From positions 516,513-580,512 of the forward strand of contig CAVWBW010000012.1 of assembly GCA_963753395.1 (NCBI GenBank): a stretch of DNA of 64,000 nt, given 5' to 3'. The notes below the pieces were generated by a model. The model made no database searches. It saw only the letters and a program-made list of their open reading frames with translations, and had not been told where the DNA came from. This DNA comes from an uncultured delta proteobacterium. GTDB lineage: Bacteria; Myxococcota_A; Polyangia; Polyangiales; Houyiibacteriaceae. Below, piece by piece: positions 2,807 to 57,519 of the stretch. Both the position numbers and the translations under genes were made by a program. Every line of letters starts with the position of its first letter. The stretch's first letter is position 1.

Positions 2807-4339
2807 ATGTTTCGGGCAATTGCCAAGAGTCGCTATCTCGTTCCTGGCTTTTTGTGCTTCGCGCTCGCGTTCGTCGTCGGGCCGGTCGGCACAGCGTCGG
2901 GTCTTCTCGCGGGTGCTGAGGCAGCGGCCGTTGCTGGGGTTGCGGCAGCAGTGCTCGGCGTCCTCGGCTTGCTGATCATTGCATCCGGGCTCCCTCCGTC
3001 GATCGAGGTCGATGAGGTGGATGCCCAGATCCGCCGGATCTACGGAGAGGTCGAAAGCGTCGAGACTGCGATCGGCGACAACGTCCGTGCTCTCTCGAGC
3101 GGGCTCGGCGAGCAGATGGTGGCCGTCGAGGAGACCGCCCGCGCCCTCAAGTCGATGGCGATCTCGCTCCAGGCGATCAGCGACCGGGTCGAGGCGCTCT
3201 CCTCGAGCACTGAGGAGAGCTCTTCGAGCATCCTCCAGATGACGGCGACGAACCAAGAGGTCGCGGAAAACATGTCCAACCTCGGGTCGAGCGTTCGCGA
3301 GACGGCTTCGTCGATCGAGGAGATGACCTACAGCATCAAGGAGGTCGCGCGGAACGTCGATGCGTTGGCGCTGACCGCTGAAGAGACTTCGTCTTCGATG
3401 AATGAGATGGATGTGTCGATCGATCAGGTCCAGTCGAACGCAAACGAAACCGCACGGCTCTCCGAGGAGGTGGCGGCCGACGCGGAAACGGGCGCGGACT
3501 CGATTCTAAAGATCATCGACGAAATCAACCGTATCAAATCGTCGTCACTCGAGGCGGTGAGCACCATTTCGAACCTCGGTGATCGCATCGAAGCGATCGG
3601 CGACATCCTAAACGTCATCGACGACGTCGCGGAGCAGACCAATCTCCTCGCTCTGAACGCGGCCATCATCGCTGCGCAGGCTGGCGAGCACGGCAAGGGC
3701 TTTGCGGTCGTGGCCGACGAGATCAAGGACCTGGCCGAGCGGGCGGGTGCTTCGACCAAGGAGATCGCCGAGCTCATCAAGACGATTCAAGAAGAAACCA
3801 AGAACGCGATCGTCGCGGTCGAGCGGGGCGCCAGCACGGTTGACCGCGGTGTGACGGTGTCAGCCGAAGCGGAGCACGCGCTCAAGAAGATCCTAGCGTC
3901 CTCGAAGCAGTCGACCGCTATGGTGCGCGGCATCGCGCGTGCAACCGTCGAGCAGGCGAAGGGATCGCGGCAGGTGACCGACGCGATCGGGCGCATCGCG
4001 GAAACCGTACAGCAGATTGCGGCGGCGACTGCCGAGCAGGCACGCGGCTCGGAGCTCATCATGAAGAGCGCAGACAACATGCGGCTCATTACGCAGCAGA
4101 TGGAGCGCAGCAGCCAGGAGCAAGCCGAAGGCGGACGCCAGATGACGGGAGCGATCGAAAGCATCTCGGACATGGTGCATCAGCTGCACGGGTCGCACCG
4201 CAAGCACTCCGAGAGCTCGGAGCAGACCCTGGCGGCAGCCAACCGCATCCAGCAGTTGACGCGCGAATACGAGCGCAGGGTGAGGGCGATGAACGAGGCT
4301 GTCGAGCGCTTGCGCGCTCTGCGATCTACGGGTTCGTAG
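2807..4339 (+). CDS. Methyl-accepting chemotaxis protein
   Basis: ORF 2756..4339. It has an N-terminal TM region (alternative start at 2756). The highly conserved MCP signalling hairpin is present: [49 protein letters not shown]. Confidence 0.85.
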
Positions 4340-17168: not shown

Positions 17169-19972
17169 TGGCTACTGCTAGCTACCTCCACAACCCGATG
17201 ATTCACCGGGACCGCCGCCTCGGCGAGACCGACTCCGAGTGGGTCCGCTCGTTCGCCTGCGACGACATGACTGCGCTGATCGTTTGCCGTGGGCCGATTC
17301 GCCAGGAAGCCCTCGATGTCTTCGCGGAAATGGGGATGAATCAGGTAGGGATCCTGCTCTCCGAGAAGGACTCGATCGTCTACCCCCGTGCTCTGGCGCC
17401 CGAGCTGCGCCGCTTGGATCCCTCGCGCGTTCACAACGTACAGGACTACACCGGCGCGAGCGGTGAAGAGCGCACCCAACGCATCGCCGAGATCATCGCG
17501 ATCGCAAAAGACAACGGGTACGACTACATCTTCGCCGGCTACGGCTTCATGGCCGAGGACGAGGAGTTCGTCAGCGCCATCGAGGACGCAGGCCTTCGTT
17601 TCATCGGCCCGTGCTCGTACACGGTGCAGGCGGCGGGCTTCAAAGACGAAGCCAAACGCACCGCCGAACGCGTCGACGTCAGCGTTACGCCTGGCGTCAA
17701 CGACGCCACCACGCGCCTCATTTTGAGGAAGCACAAGGATCTCAAGGGGCTTCAGAAGCTCGCCAAGAAGCACGCACTCGACGTGCCGGCGCTGAGCGAC
17801 AAGAGCGTCGAGCTCGATGCTGCCGCCGACGCGCTTCTCTCGGCTTCGTATGACGCGGGCATCGATCTCTACACGGTCGACGAGCTCGGCGAGCAGATCG
17901 AGATCGAAGTCGCCTCGATCTTGAAACAGCACTCAGGGACACGCATTCGACTCAAGGCGATCGGCGGTGGCGGAGGCAAGGGCCAGCGCATCGTCAGCAA
18001 AGCGAGTGAAGCGCCTCCGATGGTTCGCGAGATCCTCGGCGAGGTCAAAGCGCTCGGCGTCGGAGACAACAAGAACATCCTGGTCGAGCTCAACATCGAG
18101 ACCACGCGTCACAACGAAATCCAGCTCATCGGCAATGGCGAGTGGTGCATCTCCCTCGGCGGCCGTGACTGTTCCCTCCAGATGCATGAGCAGAAGCTCC
18201 TCGAGGTGTCGATCACTCAGGAGACGCTAGCCGCAGCCGTGGAGCGCGAGCGCGCGGCTGGAGATGAGGCGGCGGCGGCGGCGATCGAGCAAGATCTCAG
18301 CATCCTTCGCCGCATGGAGGCCGAGGCCGAGCGCTTCGGCGAAGCGGTCAAGCTCGATTCGGCTTCGACCTTCGAGTGCATCGTCGACGGCCCCCGACAC
18401 TACTTCATGGAGGTCAACACGCGCATCCAAGTCGAGCACCGCGTGTCCGAGCTCTGCTACGCTCTTCGGTTCACGAATCCAGACGATGACTCCGATTGGT
18501 TCGACGTGCATTCCGTCGTCGAGATGATGGCTTTGCTCGCCAAGCACAAGACCCGGCTTCCCCGACCCATCCGGGTCCAGCGCGATGCGGCTGCGGTCGA
18601 GGCCCGGCTCAACGCCACCGACCATTCGCTCTCACCACATGCGGGCGGTGAGATCATGTCGTGGTCGGATCCGATCGAAGGGGAGGTTCGGGACGACCAG
18701 GGGATTTGCTTCAAGAACCCCGATACCGATCTCTTCATGCGCTACAAGCTCGCCGGCGCATACGACAGCAACATCGCGCTCCTGGTGACCACTGGCGACG
18801 ACCGCCGCGATAGCTACGAGCATCTACGTGAGGCCATACGGCGTACCGTGCTTCGCGGGCCGGATCTCCAGACGAACCTGCAGTTCCACTACGGCCTGGT
18901 GCATTGGTTCCTCGCAAACGGCGTCGACGCGAAGCCGACGACCCAGTTCGTGGTTCCCTACCTCACGTTGGTTGGCGAGCTCCTCCAGGAAACCAACCAA
19001 ATCGACGCGGACTACGCGTACGATCGGCTCTGCGGGCAGTATCTGCAAGCGGTGAGCGGCGATGCGGCCGCGGCGAAGGCCACGACCGAGCTGTCCGTGC
19101 TGAAGCGAACACTCCTCGGACGGCCACTTGGCCGCCTCTTGCGACAGCCGCATCTCCTCTCTGCCTGGCTCAGCTCGAACAAGGAGAACTTCCAAGTCGA
19201 GAACGACCGGGTGACCTGGTTGCGCAACCCGCTCCTCGTGCTCTCCGATACCTACCACCTCCTTCATATGGACGCGGACGTCGCTCTTCCTGCCGCACAC
19301 AAGATTTGGGACCAGGACGATCAGCTCCTCAGGGACGGCGCGGCGTTTTACGCGTCCTGCGAAGAACGGCTGGGAGAGACGAGCTGGCCCAAGCTCGACG
19401 AACAGCTCAAGGCCAAGCAGGCACCCAAGGGCTTCGACGCCGAGCAATGGCACCTGGTCCGCGAAGCCCACCTCGGTTTCCAACTCGGCCTGGAGCTCTA
19501 CAGCTTGTTGCCGCTCGTCGGTCACAAGGTCGGCTTCTTCGACCTGCGCGTGAATGGGGATCTGACGATCGCCATTCCGGAGCGCCTCTTCGACCGCGAG
19601 CATCAAGCGAAGATGAAGAAGGTCCTCGTGCCGCCTCCGGTCAACAAGGCCGACGAGATCGTCGCGGTCAGCGGTGGGATGTACTACGCGCAGGAAGCGC
19701 CGGGGATGCCCTTGTTCGTCGAGGAGGGCCAGCACTTCGAGATCGGCGACCCGCTCTACATCGTTGAAGTCATGAAGATGTTCAACAAGGTGTACGCGCC
19801 TTTCGCCGGCACCGTCGACAAGATCCTCGTCGAAAGCAACGGCACGATCGTCTCGAAAGGCCAGCCCCTCTTCAAGGTCACCCCCGACGAGAAGTTCGTC
19901 GAACACGACCCGGCCGAGGTCAAAGCCCGCGTCCAATCCAACACCGAGAGGTATCTCAGCGCGGTCGCCTAG
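17168..19972 (+). CDS. Atypically long biotin carboxylase / biotin carboxyl carrier (alpha) subunit
   Basis: The start ATG at 17168 overlaps the upstream stop (TGATG). ATP-grasp motifs are present: AGYGFMAEDEEF, KAIGGGGGKGQRIV, CSLQMHEQKLLE and FMEVNTRIQVEH. The C-terminal biotinyl motif is IVEVMKMFNKV. Confidence 0.85.
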   Translation: MATASYLHNPMIHRDRRLGETDSEWVRSFACDDMTALIVCRGPIRQEALDVFAEMGMNQVGILLSEKDSIVYPRALAPELRRLDPSRVHNVQDYTGASGEERTQRIAEIIAIAKDNGYDYIFAGYGFMAEDEEFVSAIEDAGLRFIGPCSYTVQAAGFKDEAKRTAERVDVSVTPGVNDATTRLILRKHKDLKGLQKLAKKHALDVPALSDKSVELDAAADALLSASYDAGIDLYTVDELGEQIEIEVASILKQHSGTRIRLKAIGGGGGKGQRIVSKASEAPPMVREILGEVKALGVGDNKNILVELNIETTRHNEIQLIGNGEWCISLGGRDCSLQMHEQKLLEVSITQETLAAAVERERAAGDEAAAAAIEQDLSILRRMEAEAERFGEAVKLDSASTFECIVDGPRHYFMEVNTRIQVEHRVSELCYALRFTNPDDDSDWFDVHSVVEMMALLAKHKTRLPRPIRVQRDAAAVEARLNATDHSLSPHAGGEIMSWSDPIEGEVRDDQGICFKNPDTDLFMRYKLAGAYDSNIALLVTTGDDRRDSYEHLREAIRRTVLRGPDLQTNLQFHYGLVHWFLANGVDAKPTTQFVVPYLTLVGELLQETNQIDADYAYDRLCGQYLQAVSGDAAAAKATTELSVLKRTLLGRPLGRLLRQPHLLSAWLSSNKENFQVENDRVTWLRNPLLVLSDTYHLLHMDADVALPAAHKIWDQDDQLLRDGAAFYASCEERLGETSWPKLDEQLKAKQAPKGFDAEQWHLVREAHLGFQLGLELYSLLPLVGHKVGFFDLRVNGDLTIAIPERLFDREHQAKMKKVLVPPPVNKADEIVAVSGGMYYAQEAPGMPLFVEEGQHFEIGDPLYIVEVMKMFNKVYAPFAGTVDKILVESNGTIVSKGQPLFKVTPDEKFVEHDPAEVKARVQSNTERYLSAVA

Positions 19973-20010
19973 CGCGCGAAGCCCCGTAGCGGCGGAGCCG
20001 CTCTATCGGG

Positions 20011-20170
20011 TCAGCGTCCAGCGCCCAGCGCCAGCGTTCAGCGCCAGCGTTCAGCGCCAGCGCTCAGCGCCAGCGCCAGCGCCAGCGTTCAGCGCCAGCG
20101 CCAGCGCCAGCGCCAGCGCCAGCGCCAGCGCCAGCGTTCAGCGCCAGCGCCAGCGTTCAGCGCCAGCGCC
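20011..20170. repeat. Non-coding satellite of CCAGCG hexamers interspersed with TTCAGCG heptamers
   Basis: Direct reading: tcagcg tccagcg cccagcg ccagcg t tcagcg ccagcg ... with up to 6 consecutive CCAGCG units. It starts 39 nt after the carboxylase stop codon. Confidence 0.9.
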
Positions 20171-20180
20171 CGCGAAACGC

Positions 20181-20573
20181 GATTGGCGTCGGGAGGTTTT
20201 CGTTAAATCCACCCGCCCACCCCCACCCGTAGTTCGACATCACTCTCACGCGAGTGGGCAGCGTGCCTCCGCGCCCCTTTGGGGCTTGGCGGCGCACTTG
20301 CGCCGGGCTTCGCCCTGGGGGCTCGCGCTGCCGCGGGTGGATTGGGGCCTGGTGGATTGCGGAGTTGCGTATGGAGGAGAATCGGTCGGGATGCGCGGCA
20401 CAGGGAGTGGGCGGGAGGCGAGTTGTATCTTGCCGTGTAGAGCCGGCCGAGCGGGACCCGCTCCCGAGCACGTGCGTCGCGACCGATTCTCCGGGTGCTC
20501 ACCTCTGCGCCCCCTCCCGTGAAACCCCTATCGGGTTTTTCCGAGGCGCGGGGGTACCTCGACGCCCGGGCGT
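20181..20573 (+). repeat. 393-bp GC-rich non-coding interspersed element, copy A
   Basis: Alignable by eye along its whole length to 25017-25409, with a few indels. It has the imperfect terminal inverted repeat GGCGTCGGGAGGT (20185-20197) / ACCTCGACGCC (20556-20566). No reading frame is conserved between the copies. Confidence 0.85.
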
Positions 20574-20584
20574 CCTGCGTCGGG

Positions 20585-21598
20585 CTAGTGGCGATCGTCG
20601 CGGGTGGTCGCGAGCTCGACGCGGTTGCGGCCGCCGTCCTTCGCTCGGAAGAGCGCACGATCTGCGGTCGTCATCAAGCGTGATTTGAGGTCTCGTAGAG
20701 GTTGTCCGTTGAGATGACGGAGGCCGCGCAGTGTAGCCACGCCAATCGACACTGTGATCTTTGGCAGCTCGCCGCCCGAGCGCATCGGACCCGCGGTGCT
20801 CGCGGCAACGTGGCTTCGAAGGTGGTCGGCAAGCGCCCGGGCGCTCTCCTTTGATGCGTTCTTCTGCACCACGACGAACTCGTCCCCGCCGAAACGGAAC
20901 ACGTCACCCACCCCGGCCGCTGCTTCGTCGAGCGCCTTGCCTGTGCGTTTCAGCGCCTCGCTCCCGGCGGCGTGACCGAGCTTGCTATTGACTCGCTTGA
21001 GGCGATCGACATCGACGAACATGAGCGCCATGTCGCGGTCGCCTCGGCGTGCCGCGTTCACGGCTTTGGTAAGATCGCTGTTGAGCTCCCGCACGTTGCG
21101 TAGCCCGGTAAGTGGGTCGTGGGCCGCGAGCCCCTCCTGACGCCGGAGCGATGAGGTTTGGACCAACGACGTTGCGATGTAGCGCGCCATGCCCGTGATG
21201 ACGCGCTCGTCGCGGTCGGAGAAGCGATCGGGGGACTTCGGGGTATCGAGCTGAAGAAGCCCGAGCGGCTTGTTGCCGTCGTAGAGCGCAGCCAGCAAGA
21301 CCCGCCGTGTCGAGGACGCGCACTGAGCTCCACGCCTGCCCAGCGCGCGCTTTACGACCTCGCGGTTCGGCGCAGGCCCGCGCTGAAGCAGGAGCTTGGC
21401 GTCAGGGCCAAACGCTGCCACACAGGACAGCGAGTCGGCGCTTTGCCCGATGAAGATCGCACCAGCCGTGGCGCGGACCGCCAACGCGGCGGCCTCGAGC
21501 CCCTCATCGAGCACACGCATGAGCGGCCGCGCCCGGGACCTCGATGCCCCGAGAACGGATTCCTCGAGCTTTGCCCCCCTCAAGGTGTGAATCCGCAC
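20585..21598 (-). CDS. GAF-domain diguanylate cyclase (GGDEF)
   Basis: ORF 20585..21802. The C-terminal half carries DPLTGLRNVRE, FVDVDRLKRVNSKLGHAAGSEAL, RFGGDEFVVV and SIGVA. The N-terminal part is GAF-like. The start is uncertain (GTG 21598 or ATG 21520). Confidence 0.85.
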   Translation of the reverse strand: MRIHTLRGAKLEESVLGASRSRARPLMRVLDEGLEAAALAVRATAGAIFIGQSADSLSCVAAFGPDAKLLLQRGPAPNREVVKRALGRRGAQCASSTRRVLLAALYDGNKPLGLLQLDTPKSPDRFSDRDERVITGMARYIATSLVQTSSLRRQEGLAAHDPLTGLRNVRELNSDLTKAVNAARRGDRDMALMFVDVDRLKRVNSKLGHAAGSEALKRTGKALDEAAAGVGDVFRFGGDEFVVVQKNASKESARALADHLRSHVAASTAGPMRSGGELPKITVSIGVATLRGLRHLNGQPLRDLKSRLMTTADRALFRAKDGGRNRVELATTRDDRH

Positions 21599-21764
21599 AC
21601 CCAAATCGTAGGCAACCTGGGCACGACACGCCAACCCGTACGTCCCTGTTTTGCTGTGTAGGTGTGTAGGTGTGCCCTCTCCGAACCCCGGGGGCTTCCG
21701 CGTAGGCAACTTCTTCTGATGGCGGTCACGCCCGGTTACACTAGGGTCGTTCCTGGGGGGTCTG

Positions 21765-22733
21765 TTGCCGAACGAGGACGAGCTGCTTCGCCAATACCGC
21801 ACGATGATGGTAATCCGCCGCTTCGAGGAAGAGGCTGCGCGGAACTACGCCAAGGGTAAGATCGGCGGTTTTCTCCATCTGTATATCGGACAGGAAGCCA
21901 TCGCTGTGGCCGCCGCCGAAGTGCTCGAGGACCGCGACTACATATTTCAGACTTACCGGGACCACGGGACCGCACTGGCGCGTGGGATGTCACCGAACGC
22001 TGCGATGGCCGAGCTCTTCGGCAAGGACACAGGGTGCTCGCGCGGGCTTGGTGGCTCGATGCACTTCTTCGACGTAGAGCGAGGCTTTCTCGGTGGCTGG
22101 GCGATCATCGGCGGCCATCTCGCCCTCGCAGCCGGCACCGCTTTCAAGTCGAAGTACGCAGGCGAGGACCGCGTGACCATGTGCTTTTTCGGAGAAGGCT
22201 CGACCAACATCGGCGGGTTCCACGAAGCAATGAGTCTCGCTGGCCTCTGGAAGCTCCCGGTGGTCTTCGTCTGTGAGAACAATCAATACGCGATGGGGAC
22301 GCCCCTCGAACGCACGAGCCCGCTGAAGGATCTCTCGATCAAGGCCGAAGGCTACGGGATGGTCGGGGACCGGTGTGAAGGCCACGATGTGGAAGTCGTA
22401 CAAGAACGGCTTGGCGCCGCGGTGGCGCGCGCTCGCGCCGGCGAAGGTCCTACGTTCGTCGAAATTCAAACCTATCGTTTCCGTGGCCACTCGATGAGCG
22501 ATCCGGCGAAGTACCGAACGAGGACCGAGCTCGAGCAACGCAAGCAGCGAGATCCCATCGTGGTCGTTCGGGAGAGGCTTCTCGGACTCGGCGTCGAAGA
22601 GAATACCCTGGACGACATCGATCTCGAAGTCGACGAGCAGATCGACGCGGCCGTCCACTTCGCCGACGAGTCTGAACCGGCTCGTGAAGATGTGATGAGG
22701 AGCACCGTGCTCGCCGCGGAGGATGCTTCGTGA
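21765..22733 (+). CDS. pdhA: Pyruvate dehydrogenase E1 component alpha subunit
   Basis: LLRQYRTMMVIRRFEE, GFLHLYIGQEA and FGEGSTNIGGFHEAMSLAGLWKLPVVFVCENNQYAMGT (the TPP motif). The start codon is TTG. Confidence 0.9.
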   Translation: MPNEDELLRQYRTMMVIRRFEEEAARNYAKGKIGGFLHLYIGQEAIAVAAAEVLEDRDYIFQTYRDHGTALARGMSPNAAMAELFGKDTGCSRGLGGSMHFFDVERGFLGGWAIIGGHLALAAGTAFKSKYAGEDRVTMCFFGEGSTNIGGFHEAMSLAGLWKLPVVFVCENNQYAMGTPLERTSPLKDLSIKAEGYGMVGDRCEGHDVEVVQERLGAAVARARAGEGPTFVEIQTYRFRGHSMSDPAKYRTRTELEQRKQRDPIVVVRERLLGLGVEENTLDDIDLEVDEQIDAAVHFADESEPAREDVMRSTVLAAEDAS

Positions 22734-23716
22734 GGGAGATTCGCTACCGAGAAGCGCTCCGCGAAGCGATGCTCGAGGAGATGGAGCGCGACCAGAATGT
22801 ATTCCTCATGGGAGAGGAAGTCGGGCACTATCAGGGGGCGTACAAGGTATCCGAAGGGCTGCTCGACAAATTCGGCGAGCGCCGTGTCATCGACACGCCC
22901 ATCGCGGAGGCCGGTTTCGCCGGTGTCGGCATCGGTGCGGCTATGGTCGGGCTCCGTCCCATCATCGAGTTCATGACGTGGAATTTCTCGTTCGTGGCGT
23001 TCGACCAGATCATGAGCAACGCGGCAAAGGTGCACGCGATGAGCGCAGGCGCGATTCAGGTTCCGATCGTGTTTCGTGGTCCAAATGGCGCGGCAAAGCA
23101 GGTGGCGGCGCAACACAGCCACAGCTGCGCGCCGTTCTACACCAACATACCAGGGCTCTACGTCATTCAACCGAGCACGCCGCGCGATGCGAAGGGCCTT
23201 CTGAAGAGCGCGATTCGAAGTAACAATCCCGTCGTGTTTCTCGAAGGCGAAACTTTGTACGGGATCAAGGGCGAGGTGCCGGACGAAGGTGTCGAGGAGC
23301 TCGTGCCGATTGGAGAGAGCCGCCTGGCGCGCGCTGGCAGCGACTGCACAATCGTCTCCTGGGGCCGCCCCTACTACACGGTGTTGGCGGCGGCCGACAG
23401 GCTCGCCGCGGAAGGCATCGAATGCGAAGTGATCGATCCGCGGACGCTCCGACCACTCGACACCACCCTGATGGTCGAAAGCGTCAGGAAGACAAATCGA
23501 TGCGTCGTCGTTCATGAGCACTGGCCGTACGGAGGTCCGGGCGCCGAGATCGTCGATCGAATACAACGCGAGGCTTTCGACTATCTCGATGCACCACTCG
23601 AACGCGTGGCAAGCCTCGACCTGTCGATGCCCTACGCCCTGAATCTAGAAGACACCGTACTGCCCACCGAGGAGCGAGTAATGGACGCCGTGAAACGCGT
23701 CAGTTACGTGAAGTGA
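22730..23716 (+). CDS. pdhB: Pyruvate dehydrogenase E1 component beta subunit
   Basis: REALREAMLEEMERDQNVFLMGEEVG..., VIDTPIAEAGFAGVGIGAAMVGLRPI. The GTG start overlaps the pdhA stop. Confidence 0.92.
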   Translation: MREIRYREALREAMLEEMERDQNVFLMGEEVGHYQGAYKVSEGLLDKFGERRVIDTPIAEAGFAGVGIGAAMVGLRPIIEFMTWNFSFVAFDQIMSNAAKVHAMSAGAIQVPIVFRGPNGAAKQVAAQHSHSCAPFYTNIPGLYVIQPSTPRDAKGLLKSAIRSNNPVVFLEGETLYGIKGEVPDEGVEELVPIGESRLARAGSDCTIVSWGRPYYTVLAAADRLAAEGIECEVIDPRTLRPLDTTLMVESVRKTNRCVVVHEHWPYGGPGAEIVDRIQREAFDYLDAPLERVASLDLSMPYALNLEDTVLPTEERVMDAVKRVSYVK

Positions 23717-23719
23717 GCC

Positions 23720-24967
23720 ATGGCGAAGATCATCGGACTACCTAAGCTTTCGCCCACGATGGAAGAGGGCACCCTCGTCGCATGGACCAAGAAAGAGGGC
23801 GATGAAGTCGAGGTCGATGATCTCCTGGCTGAGGTCGAGACCGACAAGGCCACGATGGAGTTCCGCTCGTTTGATCGGGGCGTTCTCCTCAAGATCCTGG
23901 TTCCCGAGGGCGCGACGCTAGAGCCGGATGTCCCAGTCGCGATCATCGGAAAGGCGGGCGAGGATATCGCCCACCTGCTGGCGGAGCTAGAGTCAGCGCC
24001 AGAGCCAGAGCCAGCGTCAGCGCCAGCGCCAGCGCCAGCGCCAGCGCCAGCGCCAGCGCCAGCGCCAGCGTCAGAGCCAGCGCCCGCGTCAGCGCCCGCG
24101 GCAGCGCCCGCGTCCGGGCGGGTGTTGTCGTCGCCTCTCGTTCGAAAGCTCGCCCGTGAGCAAAGCATCGATCTACGCACGGTTGAGGGCTCGGGCCCCC
24201 AAGGCCGGATCGTCAAGCGGGATATCGAGTCCTATGCGGGTCCTTCGACGGCGGGCGCCGTGGGAGCCGGGGAGCGCCTTCCGCCGAGAATCGTCAAAGC
24301 CAGCAGCATGCGCCGGACGATTGCGCGGCGTCTAACCGAGTCCAAGCAGACCGTCCCGCACTACTACCTCACCATCGACGTCGACATCGCGCCGCTCTCC
24401 GATGCACGCAAAGCGATGAACGCCGAGCTCGAAGAGGCCGGTGAGAAGGTGTCGCTCAACGACTTGATCATCAAGGCCGCGGCGGCGACGCTCCGGCGCG
24501 TTCCGGAAGTGAACGCGTCTTGGATGGACAAGGAGATCCACTACCACCAGGTGGTCGACATCTCGGTCGCGGTCGCCGTCGATGATGGACTGATGACGCC
24601 CGTCATTCGCGACGCGGACCGCAAAGGCGTCGCTCAGATCGCGCGCGAAGTCCGCGAGCTCGCTGGGAGGGCTAAAGAGAAGAAGCTTCAGCCCGAAGAG
24701 ATGAGCAACGGCACATTCTCGATCAGCAACCTAGGCATGTTCGGCATCGAGGAGTTCTCTGCAGTCATCAACCCGCCCGAGGCGGCCATCCTTGCGGTTG
24801 GCACGATCCGCAGCGAGCCGGTCGTCGACGCCGGCGCGATCGTCCCCGGCCGCCGTATGCGCTTCACCATGAGCTGCGACCACCGCGTCATCGACGGCGC
24901 CACAGGCGCCAAGTTCATGGCGGCGTTCAAGAGCACGATAGAGTCCCCCCTGACGATGTTGCTCTAG
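23720..24967 (+). CDS. pdhC: Dihydrolipoamide acetyltransferase (E2) of the pyruvate dehydrogenase complex
   Basis: Lipoyl domain (EVETDKATMEF), an Ala-Pro linker, a subunit-binding domain (SPLVRKLAREQSIDL...GSGPQGRIVKRD) and a catalytic domain (SCDHRVIDGA). Confidence 0.92.
   Translation: MAKIIGLPKLSPTMEEGTLVAWTKKEGDEVEVDDLLAEVETDKATMEFRSFDRGVLLKILVPEGATLEPDVPVAIIGKAGEDIAHLLAELESAPEPEPASAPAPAPAPAPAPAPAPASEPAPASAPAAAPASGRVLSSPLVRKLAREQSIDLRTVEGSGPQGRIVKRDIESYAGPSTAGAVGAGERLPPRIVKASSMRRTIARRLTESKQTVPHYYLTIDVDIAPLSDARKAMNAELEEAGEKVSLNDLIIKAAAATLRRVPEVNASWMDKEIHYHQVVDISVAVAVDDGLMTPVIRDADRKGVAQIAREVRELAGRAKEKKLQPEEMSNGTFSISNLGMFGIEEFSAVINPPEAAILAVGTIRSEPVVDAGAIVPGRRMRFTMSCDHRVIDGATGAKFMAAFKSTIESPLTMLL
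23993..24115. repeat. Coding microsatellite (AGCGCC/AGAGCC hexamers) encoding the E2 Ala-Pro linker
   Basis: tcagcgcc agagcc agagcc agcgtc then (agcgcc) x8... translates as SAPEPEPASAPAPAPAPAPAPAPASEPAPASAPAAAPA. The hexamer and strand are the same as in the non-coding satellites at 20011-20170, 24973-25010 and 25418-25488. Confidence 0.9.
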
Positions 24968-24972
24968 GGGAA

Positions 24973-25010
24973 GCAGCGTCAGCGCCAGCGTTCAGCGCCA
25001 GCGTCAGCGA
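24973..25010. repeat. Short CAGCGY satellite upstream of element copy B
   Basis: agcagcgtcagcgccagcgttcagcgccagcgtcagcg, beginning 6 nt after the E2 stop codon. Confidence 0.8.
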
Positions 25011-25016
25011 ACGTGA

Positions 25017-25409
25017 TTGGCGTCGGGAGGTTTTGTTTGCATCCACCCGCCCACCCCCACCCGTAGTCCTCCCTCCGCGCCCCTTTGGGGCTTGGCGGCG
25101 CATTCGCGCCGGGCTTCGCCGTTCCGGCTCGCGCTACCGCGGGTGTGGTTGTGGCGGGTTGGATTGCGTGTGGAGGAGACTCGGTCGGGATGCGCGGCAC
25201 AGGGAGTGGGCGGGAGGCGAGTTGTATGGGGCCGTATGGAGCCGGCCGAGCGGGACCCGCTCCCGAGCACGTGCGTCGCGACCGAGTCTCCGGGCCGTCC
25301 GAGCACGTGCGTCGCGACCGAGTCTCCGGGTGCTCATTTCTTCGCACCGTCCCGCGAAACCCCGTGTCGTGTTTTTCCGAGCCCTGCGTGTACCTCGACG
25401 CCCGGGCGT
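25017..25409 (+). repeat. 393-bp GC-rich non-coding interspersed element, copy B
   Basis: Same orientation and termini as copy A. It contains an internal 36-bp tandem duplication (25263-25298 and 25299-25334). It lacks a segment of about 29 nt that is present in copy A at roughly 20233-20262. Confidence 0.85.
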
Positions 25410-25417
25410 GGTGGGTA

Positions 25418-25488
25418 CAGCGCCAGCGCCAGCGTTCGGCGCCAGCGTTCAGCGTCAGCGCCAGCGTCAGCGTTCAGCGTTCAGCGTT
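25418..25488. repeat. CAGCGY/TTCAGCG satellite downstream of element copy B, overlapping the 3' end of the GH31 gene
   Basis: cagcgccagcgccagcgttcggcgccagcgttcagcgtcagcgccagcgtcagcgttcagcgttcagcgtt. The last codons of the minus-strand gene (LNAER, stop) are read from this repeat. Confidence 0.85.
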
Positions 25489-26858
25489 CCGAAGATCTCG
25501 CTGCCTTCGCGTAGGAACGCGGGAAACTCCGTCATCGGGACGTCGAGGGTGGTCTCCGCGCCGCCTTCGAATACCTTGCTGGAGTCGAACCAGTAGACCC
25601 AGCGGCCTTCCGGGAATGTGAGCGTGCGGGAGGTGCCCTCTTCCAGCATTGGGGCGATGAAGATGTCCGGGCCCAAGAGGTAGGTGTAGTCGTCCTTCGT
25701 GAGATAGGTCGTCAGCGAGGTTCCCGCCTCGAACGCCTTTGCGCCGTGCTCCATCAAGTACGGGATGAGCTCGTAGTGGATCTCGACAAACTCGCGATAG
25801 ATCGTCGCGGTCTGCTCATCGAACATCCACGGGCGGTGCTCGCCGCCGCCGCCATTCTCCATGATGGGGCTGAAGGCCCCGAGCTGGGCCCAGCGAATGA
25901 ACGCGTCTTTCGGGCGGCCGAGCTCCGGCCACGTTTGCTTGTCGGTGCGGAACCCGCCGATGTCGGAGCCATGCGCGACGTAGCCCCACTCGCTGCTCCA
26001 GTACATGTTGTTCAATGCCGCGGCGATGCCACTGAAGTCGCTGTCCTGATCGCCGACCCACCCAGCCCAGTTGATCTCGATGGGCGCGTACACCCAGATA
26101 TCGGCACCCGTGTCGGTCCCCTGGTTGTCGATTGGACGCGCGGTGATGATCCGGTCGTCGCCGAGCTTCTCTCGCAGATAGCTGAACGAATCGAGGTAAT
26201 AGGCGTAGCCGTACTCGTTGCGGTCGACGTCGCGCCCGAGCGCGGGTGAGTAGGGCACCTGCAGGATCTGCGGATCGGTTCCATCACACTTCCAGCCATC
26301 GATCCCGAGCGCGATCGCCTTGTCCATCTGCTCGTGCCACCACTCCACGGCCTCCGGATTGAAGAAATCGATCAGGCTGCCGTCGCCCTTCCACCAGTTG
26401 ACTACACCGGGCCCGCTTATCGCGTCCTTCTGCGTGAAGTACCCGGCGGCAGCCGCTTCGGCGTAGAGCGGCGAATCGATATTGATCACACCGACCATCC
26501 ACAAGAACACCCGTACGCCTCGGCTGTGGAAGTAGTCGACCATCGCCTGCGGGTCCGGATACTGCGACGGTTCGAAGACGAAGCTGTTGTAGCTGGTCTC
26601 CCAAGGGCTATCGATGATGATGGCGCCGACCGGGATATCGCGCGCGAGGTAGTCGTCGACCAACGCGATCGCGCTCTCCTGCGTGCTTTCGTTCTCCCAA
26701 ACCCAGTGGTGAAACGCCCACTCGGGCCAAGGCGCAACCGGATCCGTGCCGGCATCCATTCCGGCGTCGCCTCCAGCATCCGTGCCAGCGTCCAACGCGC
26801 CGCCCGTGGCGCTGGTGCATGCGGAGAGGAGGAGCACTAGAGGCAAGAGGCGAAGCAT
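25467..26858 (-). CDS. Glycoside hydrolase family 31-like lipoprotein
   Basis: ORF 25467..27335. The real start is MLRLLPLVLLLSAC (lipobox) at 26858. HHWVWENESTQESAIALVDDYLARDIPVGAIIIDSPWETSYNSFVFEPSQYPDPQAMVDYFHSRGVRVFLW and GIDGWKCDG fit the GH31 catalytic-domain pattern. Confidence 0.7.
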   Translation of the reverse strand: MLRLLPLVLLLSACTSATGGALDAGTDAGGDAGMDAGTDPVAPWPEWAFHHWVWENESTQESAIALVDDYLARDIPVGAIIIDSPWETSYNSFVFEPSQYPDPQAMVDYFHSRGVRVFLWMVGVINIDSPLYAEAAAAGYFTQKDAISGPGVVNWWKGDGSLIDFFNPEAVEWWHEQMDKAIALGIDGWKCDGTDPQILQVPYSPALGRDVDRNEYGYAYYLDSFSYLREKLGDDRIITARPIDNQGTDTGADIWVYAPIEINWAGWVGDQDSDFSGIAAALNNMYWSSEWGYVAHGSDIGGFRTDKQTWPELGRPKDAFIRWAQLGAFSPIMENGGGGEHRPWMFDEQTATIYREFVEIHYELIPYLMEHGAKAFEAGTSLTTYLTKDDYTYLLGPDIFIAPMLEEGTSRTLTFPEGRWVYWFDSSKVFEGGAETTLDVPMTEFPAFLREGSEIFGTLNAER

Positions 26859-28294: not shown

Positions 28295-28423
28295 GTCTGA
28301 GCCTTGGGGCGGGTGCCCCGGACGGTCAAGGTCTCCGGGCGCCCGGGGTGCGGCGTGGCGGAGGACAGGCTACCATGCGGCATTGGCTCGACGCGGCACC
28401 CCTCGCGGCGACCCCCTAGGCTC

Positions 28424-29425
28424 ATGCGCTCCTTTGCTTACGTCTTTCTGGCCGCGACGGCCGTGGCCGGTTGTGCCGAAACCGCCGTCCCCACGATTCC
28501 ACCTGATGCGGATCGCGACGCCTCCGTCGATCCGGACGGAGGCCCCGACCTCGACGGCTCTGTCGGCGACGGCGGCGCGGATGGAGGCCCTGACCTGGAC
28601 GGCTCTGTCGGCGACGGGGGGTCGGATGGCGGACTGCCTGACGGGGGCGGGTCTTGGTGCGAAACATCCGTGCTTTGTCCATCTTGCCCAGACCCGGACG
28701 CCCTTTGCGACGAGGACAACCCCTGTCCGGCGGGCGAGGCCTGTCTCTCGACGGGGTGCGAGGATTTCGCGCGTTGCTTCGTGATCGGCGGGGGCGCATG
28801 CGAAGGCGATGAGGGCTGCACCAACCCGGCCTATGAGTGCGACTCCACCGTCGGCCGATGTCTTCGCAAAGAGCCCGGATGCGATGACTCGAACGACTGC
28901 GTCGCCGGCTTTGCCTGCGAGGACGGCGTGTGCATGGATCGGCGCGTGCCGTGCGTAGCGGGCGCCGATTGCCCACACGGCTACACCTGTTTCTTTGCGA
29001 GCCCGGATCAACGCTTCTGCCGGCGCATCACGCAACCCTGCGCCGACGATCTGGATTGCCTCGTCCTCGGAGTGCTGTGCGGCGATGCCGACGGAGATGG
29101 GGCGAGCGAGTGCATGCCGTCGCTCACGCCGAACGAACCCGAAGCGGCGCCCTGCGACGATCTCCAGTGCCCGGAGGCCTCGGCGCCGGTGTGCGAAACC
29201 GCCCCCGAAGGAACGGTGGCGACTTGTGGACGCTTCGGCCTCTGCGGCGCAGCCGTTCAGTGCGCGGCTGAATTCGAGTGCCGCGACCTCTGGGGCGACG
29301 GCCGAAAGGAGTGCGTCTCCGGGGCGGGTTCCTGTGTAGATTCGAGCGCATGCGAGCCGCGGGCGGTGTGCGGCTCCCCGCGATCCGGGGGCGCCCCTGC
29401 ATGTATCGGAGGGCCTCCGAGCTAG
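28424..29425 (+). CDS. Cysteine-rich secreted lipoprotein with repeated CxxDxDCxxGxxC modules
   Basis: ORF 28304..29425. The start is MRSFAYVFLAATAVAGC (lipobox) at 28424. There are many Cys in repeated spacing: CDDSNDCVAGFACEDGVC, CVAGADCPHGYTC and CADDLDCLVLGVLC. The N-terminal region holds a 45-bp tandem duplication. Confidence 0.6.
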   Translation: MRSFAYVFLAATAVAGCAETAVPTIPPDADRDASVDPDGGPDLDGSVGDGGADGGPDLDGSVGDGGSDGGLPDGGGSWCETSVLCPSCPDPDALCDEDNPCPAGEACLSTGCEDFARCFVIGGGACEGDEGCTNPAYECDSTVGRCLRKEPGCDDSNDCVAGFACEDGVCMDRRVPCVAGADCPHGYTCFFASPDQRFCRRITQPCADDLDCLVLGVLCGDADGDGASECMPSLTPNEPEAAPCDDLQCPEASAPVCETAPEGTVATCGRFGLCGAAVQCAAEFECRDLWGDGRKECVSGAGSCVDSSACEPRAVCGSPRSGGAPACIGGPPS

Positions 29426-49842: not shown

Positions 49843-51230
49843 TCGCCCTCCAACGCGCGGATATACTCGTCCGCCCAACGATGCACGTCGAGCCGCATGA
49901 CCTCGGCGCGTAGCGAGCGCATGCGCTTCTTCTTTTCGTTCGGCTTCATGTTGAGCGCGCGATGGATCGAGTTCGCGGTAGACTCCACATCGTAGGGGTT
50001 CACCAGCACAGCGCCTTTGAGGTATTTCGCTGCGCCGGCAAACTCGCTCAAGACGAGCACTCCATCATCGTCCGTTCGTGCGGCCGCGTACTCGTGCGCA
50101 ACGAGGTTCATCCCATCGCGCAGCGGGGTCACCAGGGCGACGTCGGCCGCCCGATAGTGCGCGAAGAGCGCTCTTTGGCTGAGATTGCGGTAGAGATAGT
50201 GAATCGGCACACGGCCGGTGTCCGCGTACCGGCCGTTGATGTCGCCAACCATTCGGTCGATCTCCTGCTTGAGGTCGGCGTAGGCCTTCACGTCCGTGCG
50301 GCTCGGCACCATGATCTGGATCAGCGCGCAGCGCGCGCGTGCCGTCTTGTCCTTCTTCAACAAGCGTTCGAACGCCGCCAAGCGGTCGGGAATGCCCTTG
50401 GTGTAGTCCAGCCGATCGACGCCGAGCAGAAGCCGACGATTGCCCATCGTCTGCTTGATGCGTTCCACCTCTCGGCCGACGTCGGGGTCGATCGCCAGCG
50501 CTTCGAGCTCGTCGACGGGGATTCCAATCGGCGCTGCGACCGTCTCGACTTTGCGGCCTCGGTAGTGGATGGCGCCTCGGGTCACTGGATGGGCGGTGAA
50601 CCGCTTCACGCACTGCACGAAGTGCTCGGCGTACTCCGCCAGGTGGAATCCCAGGACGTCGGCCCCGAGCAAACCCTCGAGGATTTCTTCACGCCACGGA
50701 AGGATTCCGAAGGTGTCGGGCGGGGGCCATGGGATGTGGCAAAACCACCCGATGCGCGCTTTTGGCCGCTTCGTCCGCAGCAAGCCCGGCACGAGCATCA
50801 GGTGGTAATCCTGAATCCAAAAGAGATCGCCCGCGCTGCTCAGCGACACGGCGGTGTCGGCGAACTCCCGGTTCGCGTGGAGGTAGCTCGACCACGGGGC
50901 CTCACCCACCTGAATCGTCGGCTCGAAGCCGTGAAGCAAGGGCCACAGCACGGCGTTCGAGATGCCCTCGTAGAACCCTCGTTGATCGCTGCGTTTCAGC
51001 GAGACGTGAGCCAGGTCGTAGTCGAGGTGTGGCGCCGGGATAGTCACTGAATCGAAGTCTTTCGCGGGCTTTGCGCTCACCCATACGCCACCGCGCTTCT
51101 GCAGCACCGGGTCGAGCGCCGCGACCAAGCCGCCGGCTGCCCGAACCCATCGCTCGCGCCCGCGGCTGACCTCATGCCGATAGGGGCCGCGGTTTGATAC
51201 GACCACAAGCTTTCGGCTCTTTCGCGCCAT
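49839..51230 (-). CDS. otsA: Trehalose-6-phosphate synthase (GT20)
   Basis: [42 protein letters not shown] and VLSEFAGAA. Start at ATG 51230 (alternative 51260). Confidence 0.92.
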
Positions 51231-56430: not shown

Positions 56431-57519
56431 ATGTCAAAGCCTGACTACTACGAAGTTCTCGAAGTCACCCGCGAAGTCACGACCGTGGAGCTCAAGAAGG
56501 CCTATCGAACGAAGGCCCTCGAGCATCACCCGGACCGGAATCCCGACAACCCGGAGGCCGAAGACAAATTCAAGATATGCGCCGAGGCGTACTCGGTCTT
56601 GAGCGATCCCCAGAAGCGGGAGGTCTACGATCGCTACGGGCACGCGGGGCTTGGCGGCGCGGGTGGACCCGGCTTCGGGGATGTTGGCGACATCTTCAGC
56701 CAGTTCCAAGACATCTTCGGAGATCTGTTCGGCGGTGGCGGCGGCTTCGGGTTCGGCGGGTTCGGAAGACGGCAACGTGACCCCAATGCGCCCACCCGAG
56801 GGGCGGATGTCCGAACCGACGTGAGCTTGTCGTTGCGTGAGGCAGCGTTCGGCACGACCAGGCAGATCGATCTATCCCACCCAACGCCTTGCGAGGCGTG
56901 CAGTGGCACCGGCGCAAAGGGCGGCGAGCTCGAGAGCTGTGGTACCTGCGGCGGCCGCGGCCAGGTCGCACGGGCGCAGGGCGCGTTCGTGATGACGACC
57001 ACATGCCCGGCGTGCCGAGGTCGCGGGGCGGCAGCGAAAGAAGCCTGCGATGAGTGCGAAGGCGCGGGCCAGGTCGACTCCGAGCGGGTCGTGAAGATCA
57101 ACGTACCAGGCGGGGTGGACACCGGGCAGAGCCTTCGCTTGAGCGGTCGTGGTCAAGAAGGAACGCGCGGCGGTCCAGCGGGGGACCTCTACGTCACTGT
57201 GCACGTCGAGCGCGACGAAGAGTTCGAGCGCGACGGCTTCAATCTCATCCATCGCCTCGTCGTCTCGTATCCGCAGGCGGCCCTGGGCGCGAAGGTCGAA
57301 GTGCCCGCCCTCGAGGAAGAAGAAGACATGGTCCAGACGCTCAAGGTGCCGTCTGGGACTCAAAACGGTGAGACGCTGGTCCTCCGTGGAGCCGGTGTTC
57401 CACGCCTCAGCGGTCGCGGACGGGGTGATTTGATCTGTGTAGTCGAGGTCGAAGTACCCAAAAAGCTCTCGCGGGAGCAGAAACGGCTCCTCAAGGACCT
57501 CGATCGTACGTTCGAATAG
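56431..57519 (+). CDS. dnaJ: Molecular chaperone DnaJ
   Basis: J domain DYYEVLEV...[14 protein letters not shown], a G/F region and four CxxCxGxG zinc-finger repeats. Confidence 0.93.

Follow-up and report, generated by a model that had tools for sequence, protein, structure and literature searches.

The DNA stretch analysed here (the window; 64,000 nucleotides from an uncultured delta proteobacterium) contains, between two convergent genes, a 393-bp sequence preceded by a short-unit satellite, which had been predicted from the letters of the window to be an undescribed, structured, non-coding element with terminal inverted repeats (TIRs). Our analysis indicates that this sequence is probably one composite copy of an uncatalogued and large mosaic repeat family, non-coding and found in Polyangiales-type Myxococcota, which is embedded in satellite DNA and shuffled by recombination in a manner resembling the BIME and BOX elements of other bacteria. 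The 393-bp unit is a mosaic of modules that are also found separately, its hairpins are under selection, and the family lies inside oriented CAGYGN arrays, preferentially in convergent gaps. The window itself is of Polyangiales origin: its PdhB protein has 90% identity or more to entries called 'Polyangiales bacterium' and 'Myxococcales bacterium SG8_38_1'.

The element (copy A, 20181-20573) and the array that precedes it occupy a gap of 612 bp between the stop codons of a biotin-carboxylase/BCCP gene (19972, + strand) and a GAF-GGDEF gene (20585, - strand). A second copy (copy B, 25017-25409) follows the pdhA-pdhB-E2 operon immediately on its 3' side and faces a convergent GH31 glycosidase gene. 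As had been predicted, a full-length alignment shows the two to be homologous end to end and both on the + strand, with ungapped blocks of 80-94% identity (for example 131 nt at 94%); the alignment contains four indels (~29, 7, 36 and 1 nt), however, and not the three counted originally. A covariance model of the core of the element (R1) scored copy A at 97.2 bits (E = 1.9e-23) and copy B at 109.5 bits (E = 1.4e-26), with the next match in the window at 13 bits, and A and B are the sole two copies within the 64 kb. Their match is far beyond chance. All eight open reading frames (ORFs) of at least 100 aa within the copies are without a Pfam match, and these ORFs differ in frame between A and B and are not conserved. 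The copies are thus non-coding, and the claim that the gap holds no credible ORF stands. The motifs singled out at the time are also in place, namely GGCGTCGGGAGGT (20185-97) and ACCTCGACGCC (20556-66), CCCGCCCAC (20212-20) and GTGGGCGGG (20407-15), as well as GAGCGGGACCCGCTC, GCACGTGC and a GGCGC-loop-GCGCC hairpin whose loop is ACTT in one copy and ATTC in the other.

Searches for further copies were made with two patterns. An 18-nt pattern from the 5' end (TTGGCGTCGGGAGGTTTT) retrieved true copies in two metagenome-assembled genomes (MAGs) of GTDB, Myxococcales bacterium Ww259 and Polyangiales bacterium MFD10204. The pattern CTTGGCGGYGC-N2-6-GCGCCGGGCTTCGCC, which has 26 specified bases and spans the second core hairpin, identified more than 120 JGI metagenome contigs among the matches listed; many of these matches lie at contig ends, as expected of a repeat that breaks assemblies. 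No match was obtained when the element was compared by blastn with 72,556 plasmids, or when the core pattern was compared with the IMG/VR viral contigs. These results bear on the simplest explanation of the two window copies, a local segmental duplication without wider significance. It would account for two copies 4.8 kb apart in the same orientation and nothing further in the window, but the core recurs on more than 120 unrelated contigs among the matches listed, the cores of A and B are only ~82% identical and thus no closer than copies from different genomes (median 80%), and in a sister species the site of copy B is empty while that of copy A is occupied. A local duplication is thereby refuted.

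An alignment of ~100 copies defines a core of ~120 nt, whose parts follow in fixed order. It begins with TTTAGTTACACC, or in the subfamily of the window with GATTGGCGTCGGGAGGTTTT..ATCC, followed by the nearly invariant C-rich tract CCGCCCGCCCACCCCCACCCGTAGTCCTCCCTGCCGCG, hairpin P1, CTTGG, hairpin P2 (CGGCGC-loop-GCGCCG), hairpin P3 (GCCc-loop-gGGC within GC...GC) and one of three alternative tails. The core thus has an unpaired, C-rich stretch of 45 nt besides its three hairpins, a few bases 5' of which stands an almost invariant GTAG. The four C-tracts are kept in 81 of 98 copies, 79 of which have loops of at most 2 nt between them. The optional insert ATCACTCTCACGCGAGTGAGCAGCGTGCC corresponds to the ~29-nt indel between A and B and occurs at the same position in ~20 unrelated copies (L026, L038, L039, L050, L115, L120 and L142 among them; collected loci are given here as L numbers).

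Most copies consist of the core alone. The parts that make up the remainder of the 393-bp unit occur in other combinations elsewhere. The long hairpin module is also present in L003, L032, L098, L129, L111, L124, L052 and L082, and its 3' arm, duplicated in copy B, is multiplied in L111 and L124 too. The full order of core, long hairpin and 3' module is found in L032 and L098, and L003 and L129 have only the core and the long hairpin. In L006, L133 and L142 the core is followed by a different middle module of ~250 nt, after which the 3' module reappears in L006 and L142. The leader position 5' of the core is taken in most other copies by GGTTTGGTTTAGTTACACC or by satellite.

This independence of the modules decides the status of the predicted TIRs. 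An imperfect inverted repeat of 11-13 bp is indeed present at the ends of both A and B and pairs in the minimum-free-energy fold. Its left half, however, belongs to the leader and its right half to the 3' module, and L032 and L098 have the 3' module without the leader, whereas L003, L005, L043 and L129 have the leader without the 3' module. The two halves therefore lie in separate, independently occurring modules and are not the ends of one unitary element.

The ~250-nt middle module (containing GTGCACACACCGTCGCAGCCCTT and, further on, GCCAATCGCAAGACAGCAACCACCGCGATTGGCG) takes the place of the long hairpin at L006 7230-7460, L142 4540-4750 and in L133, and has no Rfam match. The start of a minus-strand ORF (MNDS..KGCDGVCT) is common to its copies in L006 and L142, and a stop interrupts this ORF in L133. 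A small minus-strand protein was also considered for the core itself, as suggested by CAAGACATGCGCGG beside many cores, and was rejected: loop lengths differ by 1-6 nt, and the frame in which the core is read is not the same in L006 as in L142. Many cores are preceded by G-rich linkers similar to GTTGCTGGCGTCGGCGGTGGGGAGGACTCGCGG, the 33-bp unit of a G-rich tandem repeat (2.8 copies, L142 4228-4319) with which the copy A site of the sister species begins in place of the hexamer satellite.

The predicted structure of the core was evaluated by counting the pairs of P1, P2 and P3 on 97 distinct core sequences. Standard pairs account for 95.6% of the cells, and the covariation score of 0.117 compares with 0.028 ± 0.004 for shuffled alignments (0 of 500 reach it) and with at most 0.056 for slid controls. 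The signal is carried by P1, in which three pairs were counted as CG 59/GC 31, CG 76/GC 7/AU 3 and CG 55/AU 14/GC 9, and the inner pair of P3 switches as well (CG 72/GC 8). Because the search pattern prescribed P2 and the 5' half of P3, the invariance of these parts is uninformative. In an alignment of 11 sequences, 5 of the 31 pairs of the long hairpin have compensatory changes, one of them visible between the window copies (pair 15-121, A-T in copy A and C-G in copy B), and U-G/G-U pairs are conserved on the + strand. P1 and P3 together contain 51 G-U pairs versus 13 A-C mismatches when read on the + strand; an A-C there would be a G-U on the other strand, and this excess indicates that a single-stranded form of one strand is under selection. 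Folding energies compared with shuffled controls gave z-scores of -5.4 for the + strand and -4.1 for the - strand. The hairpins are thus under selection, as documented by the compensatory changes in P1, P3 and the long hairpin. The best-supported fold consists of a local closing helix around the core plus the long hairpin at 20376-20492. The segments 20212-20 and 20407-15 are complementary, as had been noted, but their pairing occurs neither in this fold nor in the minimum-free-energy fold.

The element is also, as anticipated, outside the families of Rfam. The window has no match at gathering score, and relaxing the threshold to E-values of up to 10 on the element returned only chance-level matches of microRNA type on the satellite; among six related loci, a single tRNA (in L135) was identified. 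Scans of the window for tRNA and tmRNA were negative, and Rfam detected no rRNA in it.

Genes around the copies were called with two crude methods based on the GC content of third codon positions, which agreed. Depending on the method, 21-22 copies lie in convergent gaps, 2-8 in divergent gaps and 14-25 in co-directional gaps. The neighbouring genes are functionally unrelated and include guaB/guaA, a sigma factor and an ABC permease. Core orientation relative to local GC skew, a proxy for the direction of replication, is 45 versus 27 (p = 0.04), a marginal bias that is too weak to use. Several sites are mosaic clusters, with two inverted cores in L024/L059, cores in the order +, -, - in L034, tandem cores in L006 and L001, and G-rich linkers between cores.

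The covariation and the asymmetry of G-U over A-C on one strand would also be expected of a functional structured RNA, such as a 3' untranslated region (UTR) element, a Rho-dependent or hairpin terminator, an insulator or a small RNA, present in many copies because many operons need it. The strong fold z-score, the enrichment in convergent gaps and the retention of the element at the orthologous guaB-guaA site of two species with 86% identical flanks point in the same direction, and the C-rich, G-poor tract followed by GC hairpins would resemble a Rho-utilisation site with pause hairpins. However, no Rfam family and no promoter or terminator consensus is associated with the element, its orientation in co-directional gaps is random, it is inverted between the orthologous sites of L003 and L129, and its mosaic, strain-variable make-up is unlike that of a dedicated RNA gene. 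The specific proposal of an RNA shared by two acyl-CoA-metabolism operons is not supported, since copies stand beside unrelated genes and a sister species with the same pdh operon has an empty copy B site. A dedicated RNA function therefore appears doubtful to us, although we would keep it in view.

The satellite was analysed over ~850 kb of collected loci, in which we defined strict arrays as at least four units of CAGYGN. Of 80 such arrays, 52 are located no more than 500 bp from a core; 50 of these 52 share its orientation, on one side of it or the other. The window has three non-coding arrays, and each of them borders one of the two elements. The array 5' of copy A had been placed at 20011-20170, in good agreement with the 20012-20174 given by Tandem Repeats Finder. 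A satellite does precede copy A, as predicted; copy B, however, is flanked on both sides (24974-25009 and 25418-25489) and not just 5', and the same hexamer is also found in coding DNA. About 20 units of it (CCAGCG/CCAGAG) encode the Ala-Pro/Glu-Pro linker of E2, the dihydrolipoamide acyltransferase (23994-24112), with intergenic satellites lying 1 kb downstream and 4 kb upstream of it, and CAGAGC-rich units stand at the same place in the sister species (L142 8279-8397). These coding hexamers could be a coincidence of codon usage, or satellite sequence and ectopic recombination could have their source, or their sink, here. At one orthologous site represented by four contigs, L016 is almost without an array, L127 has an array of ~190 bp only, and in L024/L059 the array encloses two inverted cores. 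The link to the satellite, noted originally for copy A, is real and family-wide, and the element is a dispersed repeat with presence/absence polymorphism.

Further evidence was obtained from orthologous sites. Over 21 kb, a sister strain (L001; ENA ERZ25039603 contig_2509) and the window share 99.5% identity. The carboxylase-GGDEF gap of the sister strain is 813 bp longer and contains, in order, satellite, the 5' part of the element, a minus-strand gene of 110 aa, a perfect hairpin of 23 bp, a second satellite and a full element. Copy A matches the first of the two L001 cores ('a') at every diagnostic site of its 5' half, changes over between P2 and P3, and matches the second core ('b') from there on. 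Judged by these sites, copy A is the chimera expected from unequal recombination between tandem cores, by which the gene cassette and the second satellite were deleted.

The site of copy B has a different history. In the sister species (L142-L147) the spacer between the E2 and GH31 genes measures 94 bp and contains neither element nor satellite, with the same pdh operon next to it; copy B is therefore lineage-specific. The GH31 protein ends with REGSEIFGTLNAER (...SEIFGTLNAER) in the window and with ...REGLTLPPSN in the sister species, and the last residues and stop codon of the former come from the satellite (25467-25500, minus strand), so that arrival of the element rewrote the C-terminus of this gene. 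At the copy A site, the sister species has a different mosaic, which joins the 33-bp G-rich tandem leader to an insert-bearing core, the other middle module and the 3' module and includes one arm of the long hairpin on its own. The orthologous guaB-guaA gaps of L003 and L129 contain the element in opposite orientations, bounded by inverted copies of the hairpin arm. Finally, L034 has three cores where L063 has one. Taken together, these comparisons show that sites of the family are rearranged by recombination between its own repeated parts.

The same sites allow the proposal of a MITE (miniature inverted-repeat transposable element) to be assessed, i.e. a non-autonomous deletion derivative of an insertion sequence (IS), whose transposase, encoded elsewhere, would recognise the TIRs and insert the element into hexamer satellite. 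The sequence is small (393 bp), non-coding by Pfam and multi-copy, with its core on more than 120 contigs among the matches listed; it is dispersed and polymorphic for presence, and the coupling of core and satellite orientation (50:2) fits an oriented, site-specific insertion. The paired 11-13-bp inverted repeat at the ends of A and B fits as well, and the 117-nt hairpin resembles a small palindrome of the ERIC/Correia type, with its arms flanking the core inverted in L003/L129. Nevertheless, the 'TIR' halves lie in different modules, each found without the other, and no family-wide TIRs exist. A comparison of L024/L059 with L127/L016 revealed no direct repeat beyond the satellite itself and thus no target-site duplication at filled versus empty sites, and at the copy B site flanking sequence was replaced. 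Divergence within the genome (82% identity) is like that between genomes (median 80%) and gives no sign of a recent burst, and the gene lists of the individual loci examined contain no transposase. The MITE proposal was close in spirit and wrong in detail, and a classical MITE seems unlikely. Palindromic MITE-type repeats (ERIC/IRU, Correia/NEMIS and RUP; reviews PMC10969869 and PMC3184786) share with the element a small, non-coding, dispersed and polymorphic character and, in the 117-nt hairpin, an imperfect palindrome of similar size; the element differs from them in being composite, without conserved TIRs or target-site duplication. The coordinates of its parts are compiled in Table 1. To our knowledge, it has no cognate IS.

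The element is most similar in its apparent mode of working to REP/BIME and BOX mosaic repeats. The former, known from enterobacteria and pseudomonads and taken here as defined in PMC2817692, are extragenic, high-copy, GC-rich hairpin units that are clustered with linkers, sometimes in alternating orientation, and they likewise prefer gaps at gene 3' ends and vary in copy number between strains. The extragenic, 3'-end-biased location and the mosaic clusters are found in the present family, and a single short palindrome is not: whereas the REP unit is a palindrome of 20-40 nt, the core here comprises ~120 nt with three hairpins and a C-rich/G-quadruplex tract, and it is accompanied by oriented hexamer microsatellites and by the additional 117-nt hairpin and 80-nt 3' modules. 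BOX elements of Streptococcus pneumoniae (boxA-boxB-boxC) are modular, intergenic, non-coding repeats that occur in variable combinations and form a stable composite secondary structure. Their modules vary in number and combination like those described here; they belong to another phylum, though, and are unrelated in sequence, and we know of no association of BOX elements with a flanking satellite or a small gene cassette. The embedding in polar satellites, the three-hairpin core with its conserved G-quadruplex motif and the association with four-helix-bundle gene cassettes are unusual traits.

The likeness to REP sequences raises the possibility of a REP/REPIN-like element that is moved in the form of single-stranded DNA by a Y1 (HUH) transposase, either a RAYT (REP-associated tyrosine transposase) or one of IS200/IS605 type, which would recognise strand-specific hairpins. 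Such a mode of transfer would agree with the 3'-end-biased extragenic location, the covarying hairpins and their strand-asymmetric tolerance of G-T/G-U, and the clusters of alternating orientation with linkers. It would also agree with the weak orientation bias relative to GC skew, marginal as this signal is, and with the GTAG close to the hairpins, which we take to be similar to the GTAG of Escherichia coli REP, as a lead only. On the other hand, the unit is not a 20-40-nt palindrome, and no RAYT or other Y1 transposase gene was seen at the loci examined, in the absence of a genome-wide search for one. This explanation strikes us as quite unlikely.

The 110-aa protein encoded between the two cores of the sister strain belongs to PF05635 (23S_rRNA_IVP) and TIGR02436, a family of four-helix-bundle proteins (hereafter IVP, for intervening-sequence protein), and its closest solved structure by sequence is 2GSC. 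The 23-bp perfect hairpin overlaps the ribosome-binding site of the gene. A search with this protein returned 872 homologues at E < 1e-10, the best 120 of which are 77-96% identical. Most are located on short contigs (the majority below 1 kb, the great majority 0.4-3 kb), a distribution suggestive of genes that are multi-copy and flanked by repeats and at which short-read assemblies break. A recurrent arrangement is a convergent pair of IVP1 (110 aa) and IVP2 (108 aa), which are ~55% identical, overlap by 4 bp at their ends and have a perfect hairpin each. Loci picked by protein homology alone (L135, L136, L137/L138 and L139-L141) are all flanked by arrays on both sides, with constant polarity relative to IVP1, and L135 and L136 contain a core as well. 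A PADLOC search of the IVP proteins gave no match. Free-standing PF05635/TIGR02436 genes are located at L001 5816-6209, L135 2934-3735, L137 2420-3240, L139 2440-3240 and L029 4500-5300, each behind a perfect hairpin whose 3' arm covers the Shine-Dalgarno sequence; the stem sequences vary by locus and the pairing stays perfect. The satellite-bounded cassette of L135 ends directly beside a tRNA gene (3943-4014; Rfam RF00005, 69.9 bits).

The position of this gene in L001 invites the view that the window element is the decayed remnant of a selfish IVP/S23p four-helix-bundle cassette, the free-standing counterpart of the intervening sequences (IVS) of 23S rRNA. The window copy would then be a deletion product of the L001 arrangement, and IVP genes also abut cores in L023, L029, L047, L135 and L136. 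The 872 close homologues, mostly on contigs below 1 kb, are as expected of repeat-flanked multi-copy genes, and the IVS of Coxiella likewise unites an S23p ORF with a terminal stem and with short tandem repeats that vary between strains (PMC4990558). However, tblastn detected no IVP-like coding remnant in the window, and the idea of a degenerate IVP gene hidden in the element was rejected for lack of such a signal. More than 95% of the sampled cores have no IVP gene nearby, the cassettes of L137 and L139 have no core, and the relative orientation of core and IVP gene varies. Cores and IVP cassettes give the impression of sharing the same arrays as co-tenants, not of being parent and remnant, and we consider descent from such a cassette very unlikely.

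IVS with S23p/PF05635 ORFs have been described in the 23S rRNA of Leptospira, Coxiella and Xanthomonas. That of Coxiella is described as a selfish element with a terminal stem and with strain-variable tandem heptamers (GACAGAT) in front of the S23p ORF, and with an origin and mobility that are unresolved (PMC4990558). These heptamers echo the GACAGCG/CAGCGN arrays beside the IVP genes described here, which also have a long stem next to the ORF and short tandem repeats beside it. The present elements differ in being intergenic and not within rRNA, the window having neither rRNA nor IVP-like coding sequence; in addition, the hairpin lies wholly upstream of the ORF, over the ribosome-binding site, instead of enclosing the ORF, and the cassettes often hold a convergent pair of different IVP genes. 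The parallel is suggestive. PF05635 proteins are also homologous to Avd, the accessory protein of diversity-generating retroelements (DGRs; PMC10053308), but no reverse transcriptase domain and no pair of template and variable repeats was found among the genes called around seven IVP loci, and these cassettes are therefore not DGRs. An integron was considered only because of the cassette-like layout, and the gene lists of the loci examined contain no integrase. A search of the literature turned up no earlier account of such a repeat in myxobacteria; on PF05635/TIGR02436 in connection with repeats, it yielded only papers on IVS and DGRs.

As a bolder possibility, which we put forward tentatively and would not expect to prevail, the CAGYGN arrays at gene 3' ends may be the attachment or homology sites of an unrecognised Polyangiales cassette system with fixed polarity, in which IVP proteins maintain or mobilise the cassettes. 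The cargo that the arrays would gain, lose and reshuffle could be of two kinds, structured non-coding modules on the one hand and Avd-like genes, often as convergent pairs behind perfect hairpins that sequester the ribosome-binding site, on the other. If this were true, it would provide a function for the 'intervening-sequence protein' family and an account of how IVS-type elements move.

We return to the reading that we favour, a mosaic repeat family shuffled by recombination. It would have no transposase of its own and would spread and be reshuffled mainly via homologous recombination or gene conversion, with cores and oriented hexamer arrays serving as portable homology. Spread of this kind would keep the polarity automatically, and solo satellites would be deletion products. 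Persistence at gene 3' ends would reflect the tolerance of insertions there. The hairpins, the C-rich tract and the G-quadruplex motif probably act in single-stranded form, and their likely effect is a generic one, such as polymerase pausing or termination, protection of transcript 3' ends, or an obstacle formed by a G-quadruplex or hairpin; it would not be specific to the carboxylase or to pyruvate dehydrogenase. A generic role at the RNA level, at transcript 3' ends, is possible.

Several observations weigh against this reading. Recombination covers the reshuffling at occupied sites and not the first arrival at a virgin site without satellite, and the arrival of copy B replaced, and did not just interrupt, the former 94-bp spacer and the seven final codons of GH31. 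A trans-acting enzyme (transposase, RAYT or another recombinase) is a candidate that could be encoded elsewhere, the scans having covered individual loci. The orientation of the element is indifferent to transcription, though RNA of the + strand would be the selected form: in co-directional gaps the ratio of sense to antisense cores is 7:7 and 11:14 by the two methods of gene calling, so that a strictly strand-specific role in the 3' UTR of the upstream gene does not suit all copies. A scan of the region did not find a sigma-70 promoter consensus, and neither strand of 19700-25800 has an intrinsic terminator composed of a GC hairpin and a U-tract. Retrieval by exact patterns made P2 and half of P3 invariant by ascertainment and biased the sample towards conserved copies. 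Finally, the difference between the window and L001 could in principle be an assembly collapse; against this, the two assemblies differ at ~0.5% of sites elsewhere.

Interspersed repeats such as REP/BIME, BOX, ERIC and Correia are known from a few cultured groups. Those of Myxococcota, whose large genomes are at present represented chiefly by MAGs, are almost undescribed. A family of this kind affects MAG quality, as it breaks short-read assemblies and leaves many of its copies and most of the 872 IVP homologues on very short contigs or at contig ends. For annotation, the element should count as a repeat, one that is able to alter the 3' ends of genes as happened to the GH31 tail, and no regulatory role for the carboxylase or pdh operons should be assigned to it. 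For ~30 years it has been unclear where the S23p/IVP genes of 23S rRNA intervening sequences come from and how they move (PMC4990558); the IVP genes described here, which share the satellites of the element, as free-standing, multi-copy and strain-polymorphic cassettes, make gain and loss traceable in population data.

Table 1. Parts of copies A and B and of the adjoining satellites (window coordinates).
Feature	Position	Strand	Basis or remark
Satellite 5' of copy A, hexamer/heptamer CAGCGC/CAGCGTT, ~26 units	20012-20174	+	Tandem Repeats Finder
5' leader variant AACGCGATTGGCGTCGGGAGGTTTTCGTTA, contains left 'TIR'	20176-20205	+	common to window A and B, L001, L003, L005, L006, L043, L129
Core module, copy A: C-rich tract, optional insert, P1-P3	20196-20338	+	model R1; alignment of 98-101 copies
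C-rich tract ATCCACCCGCCCACCCCCACCCG; minus strand is G-quadruplex motif GGGTGGGGGTGGGCGGG	20206-20228	+	columns at least 90% conserved
Optional insert of ~30 nt, small hairpin CACTC...GAGTG	20236-20265	+	present in copy A, absent from copy B
Hairpin P1, GCCCC-TTT-GGGGC	20273-20285	+	outer stem covaries across family
Hairpin P2, CGGCGC-ACTT-GCGCCG (the GGCGC hairpin of the original prediction)	20290-20305	+	stem constant, loop variable
Hairpin P3, GC..GCCC-loop-GGGC..GC	20307-20326	+	inner pair switches; copy B has G-C form
Long imperfect hairpin module (117 nt), arms ~36 nt	20376-20492	+	inverted repeat; 11-sequence alignment
3' module, ~80 nt, contains right 'TIR'	20493-20574	+	conserved in window B, L032, L098, L006, L142, with or without leader
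Terminal 14-bp palindrome GACGCCCGGGCGTC of 3' module	20561-20574	+	end of 3' module
Satellite 5' of copy B	24974-25009	+	Tandem Repeats Finder
Core module, copy B, no insert	25030-25144	+	model R1
Long hairpin module, copy B	25175-25291	+	inverted repeat; one pair compensated, A-T in copy A and C-G here
36-bp tandem duplication of long hairpin 3' arm, copy B	25263-25334	+	direct repeat, spacing 36; A/B alignment
3' module, copy B	25335-25409	+	alignments
Satellite 3' of copy B	25418-25489	+	Tandem Repeats Finder; translations: last units give final codons and stop of minus-strand GH31 gene

Three minor features of the window were recorded in addition. A sub-threshold match to the covariance model at 50599-50746 (13 bits, E = 0.055) and a 32-nt stretch at 56646-56677 with 81% identity to the P1-P2 region of the core are both probably due to chance in GC-rich DNA. 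A 45-bp tandem repeat at 28533-28629 (2.2 copies, 88% match), which lies within a + strand ORF region (28304-29425), is unrelated to the element.

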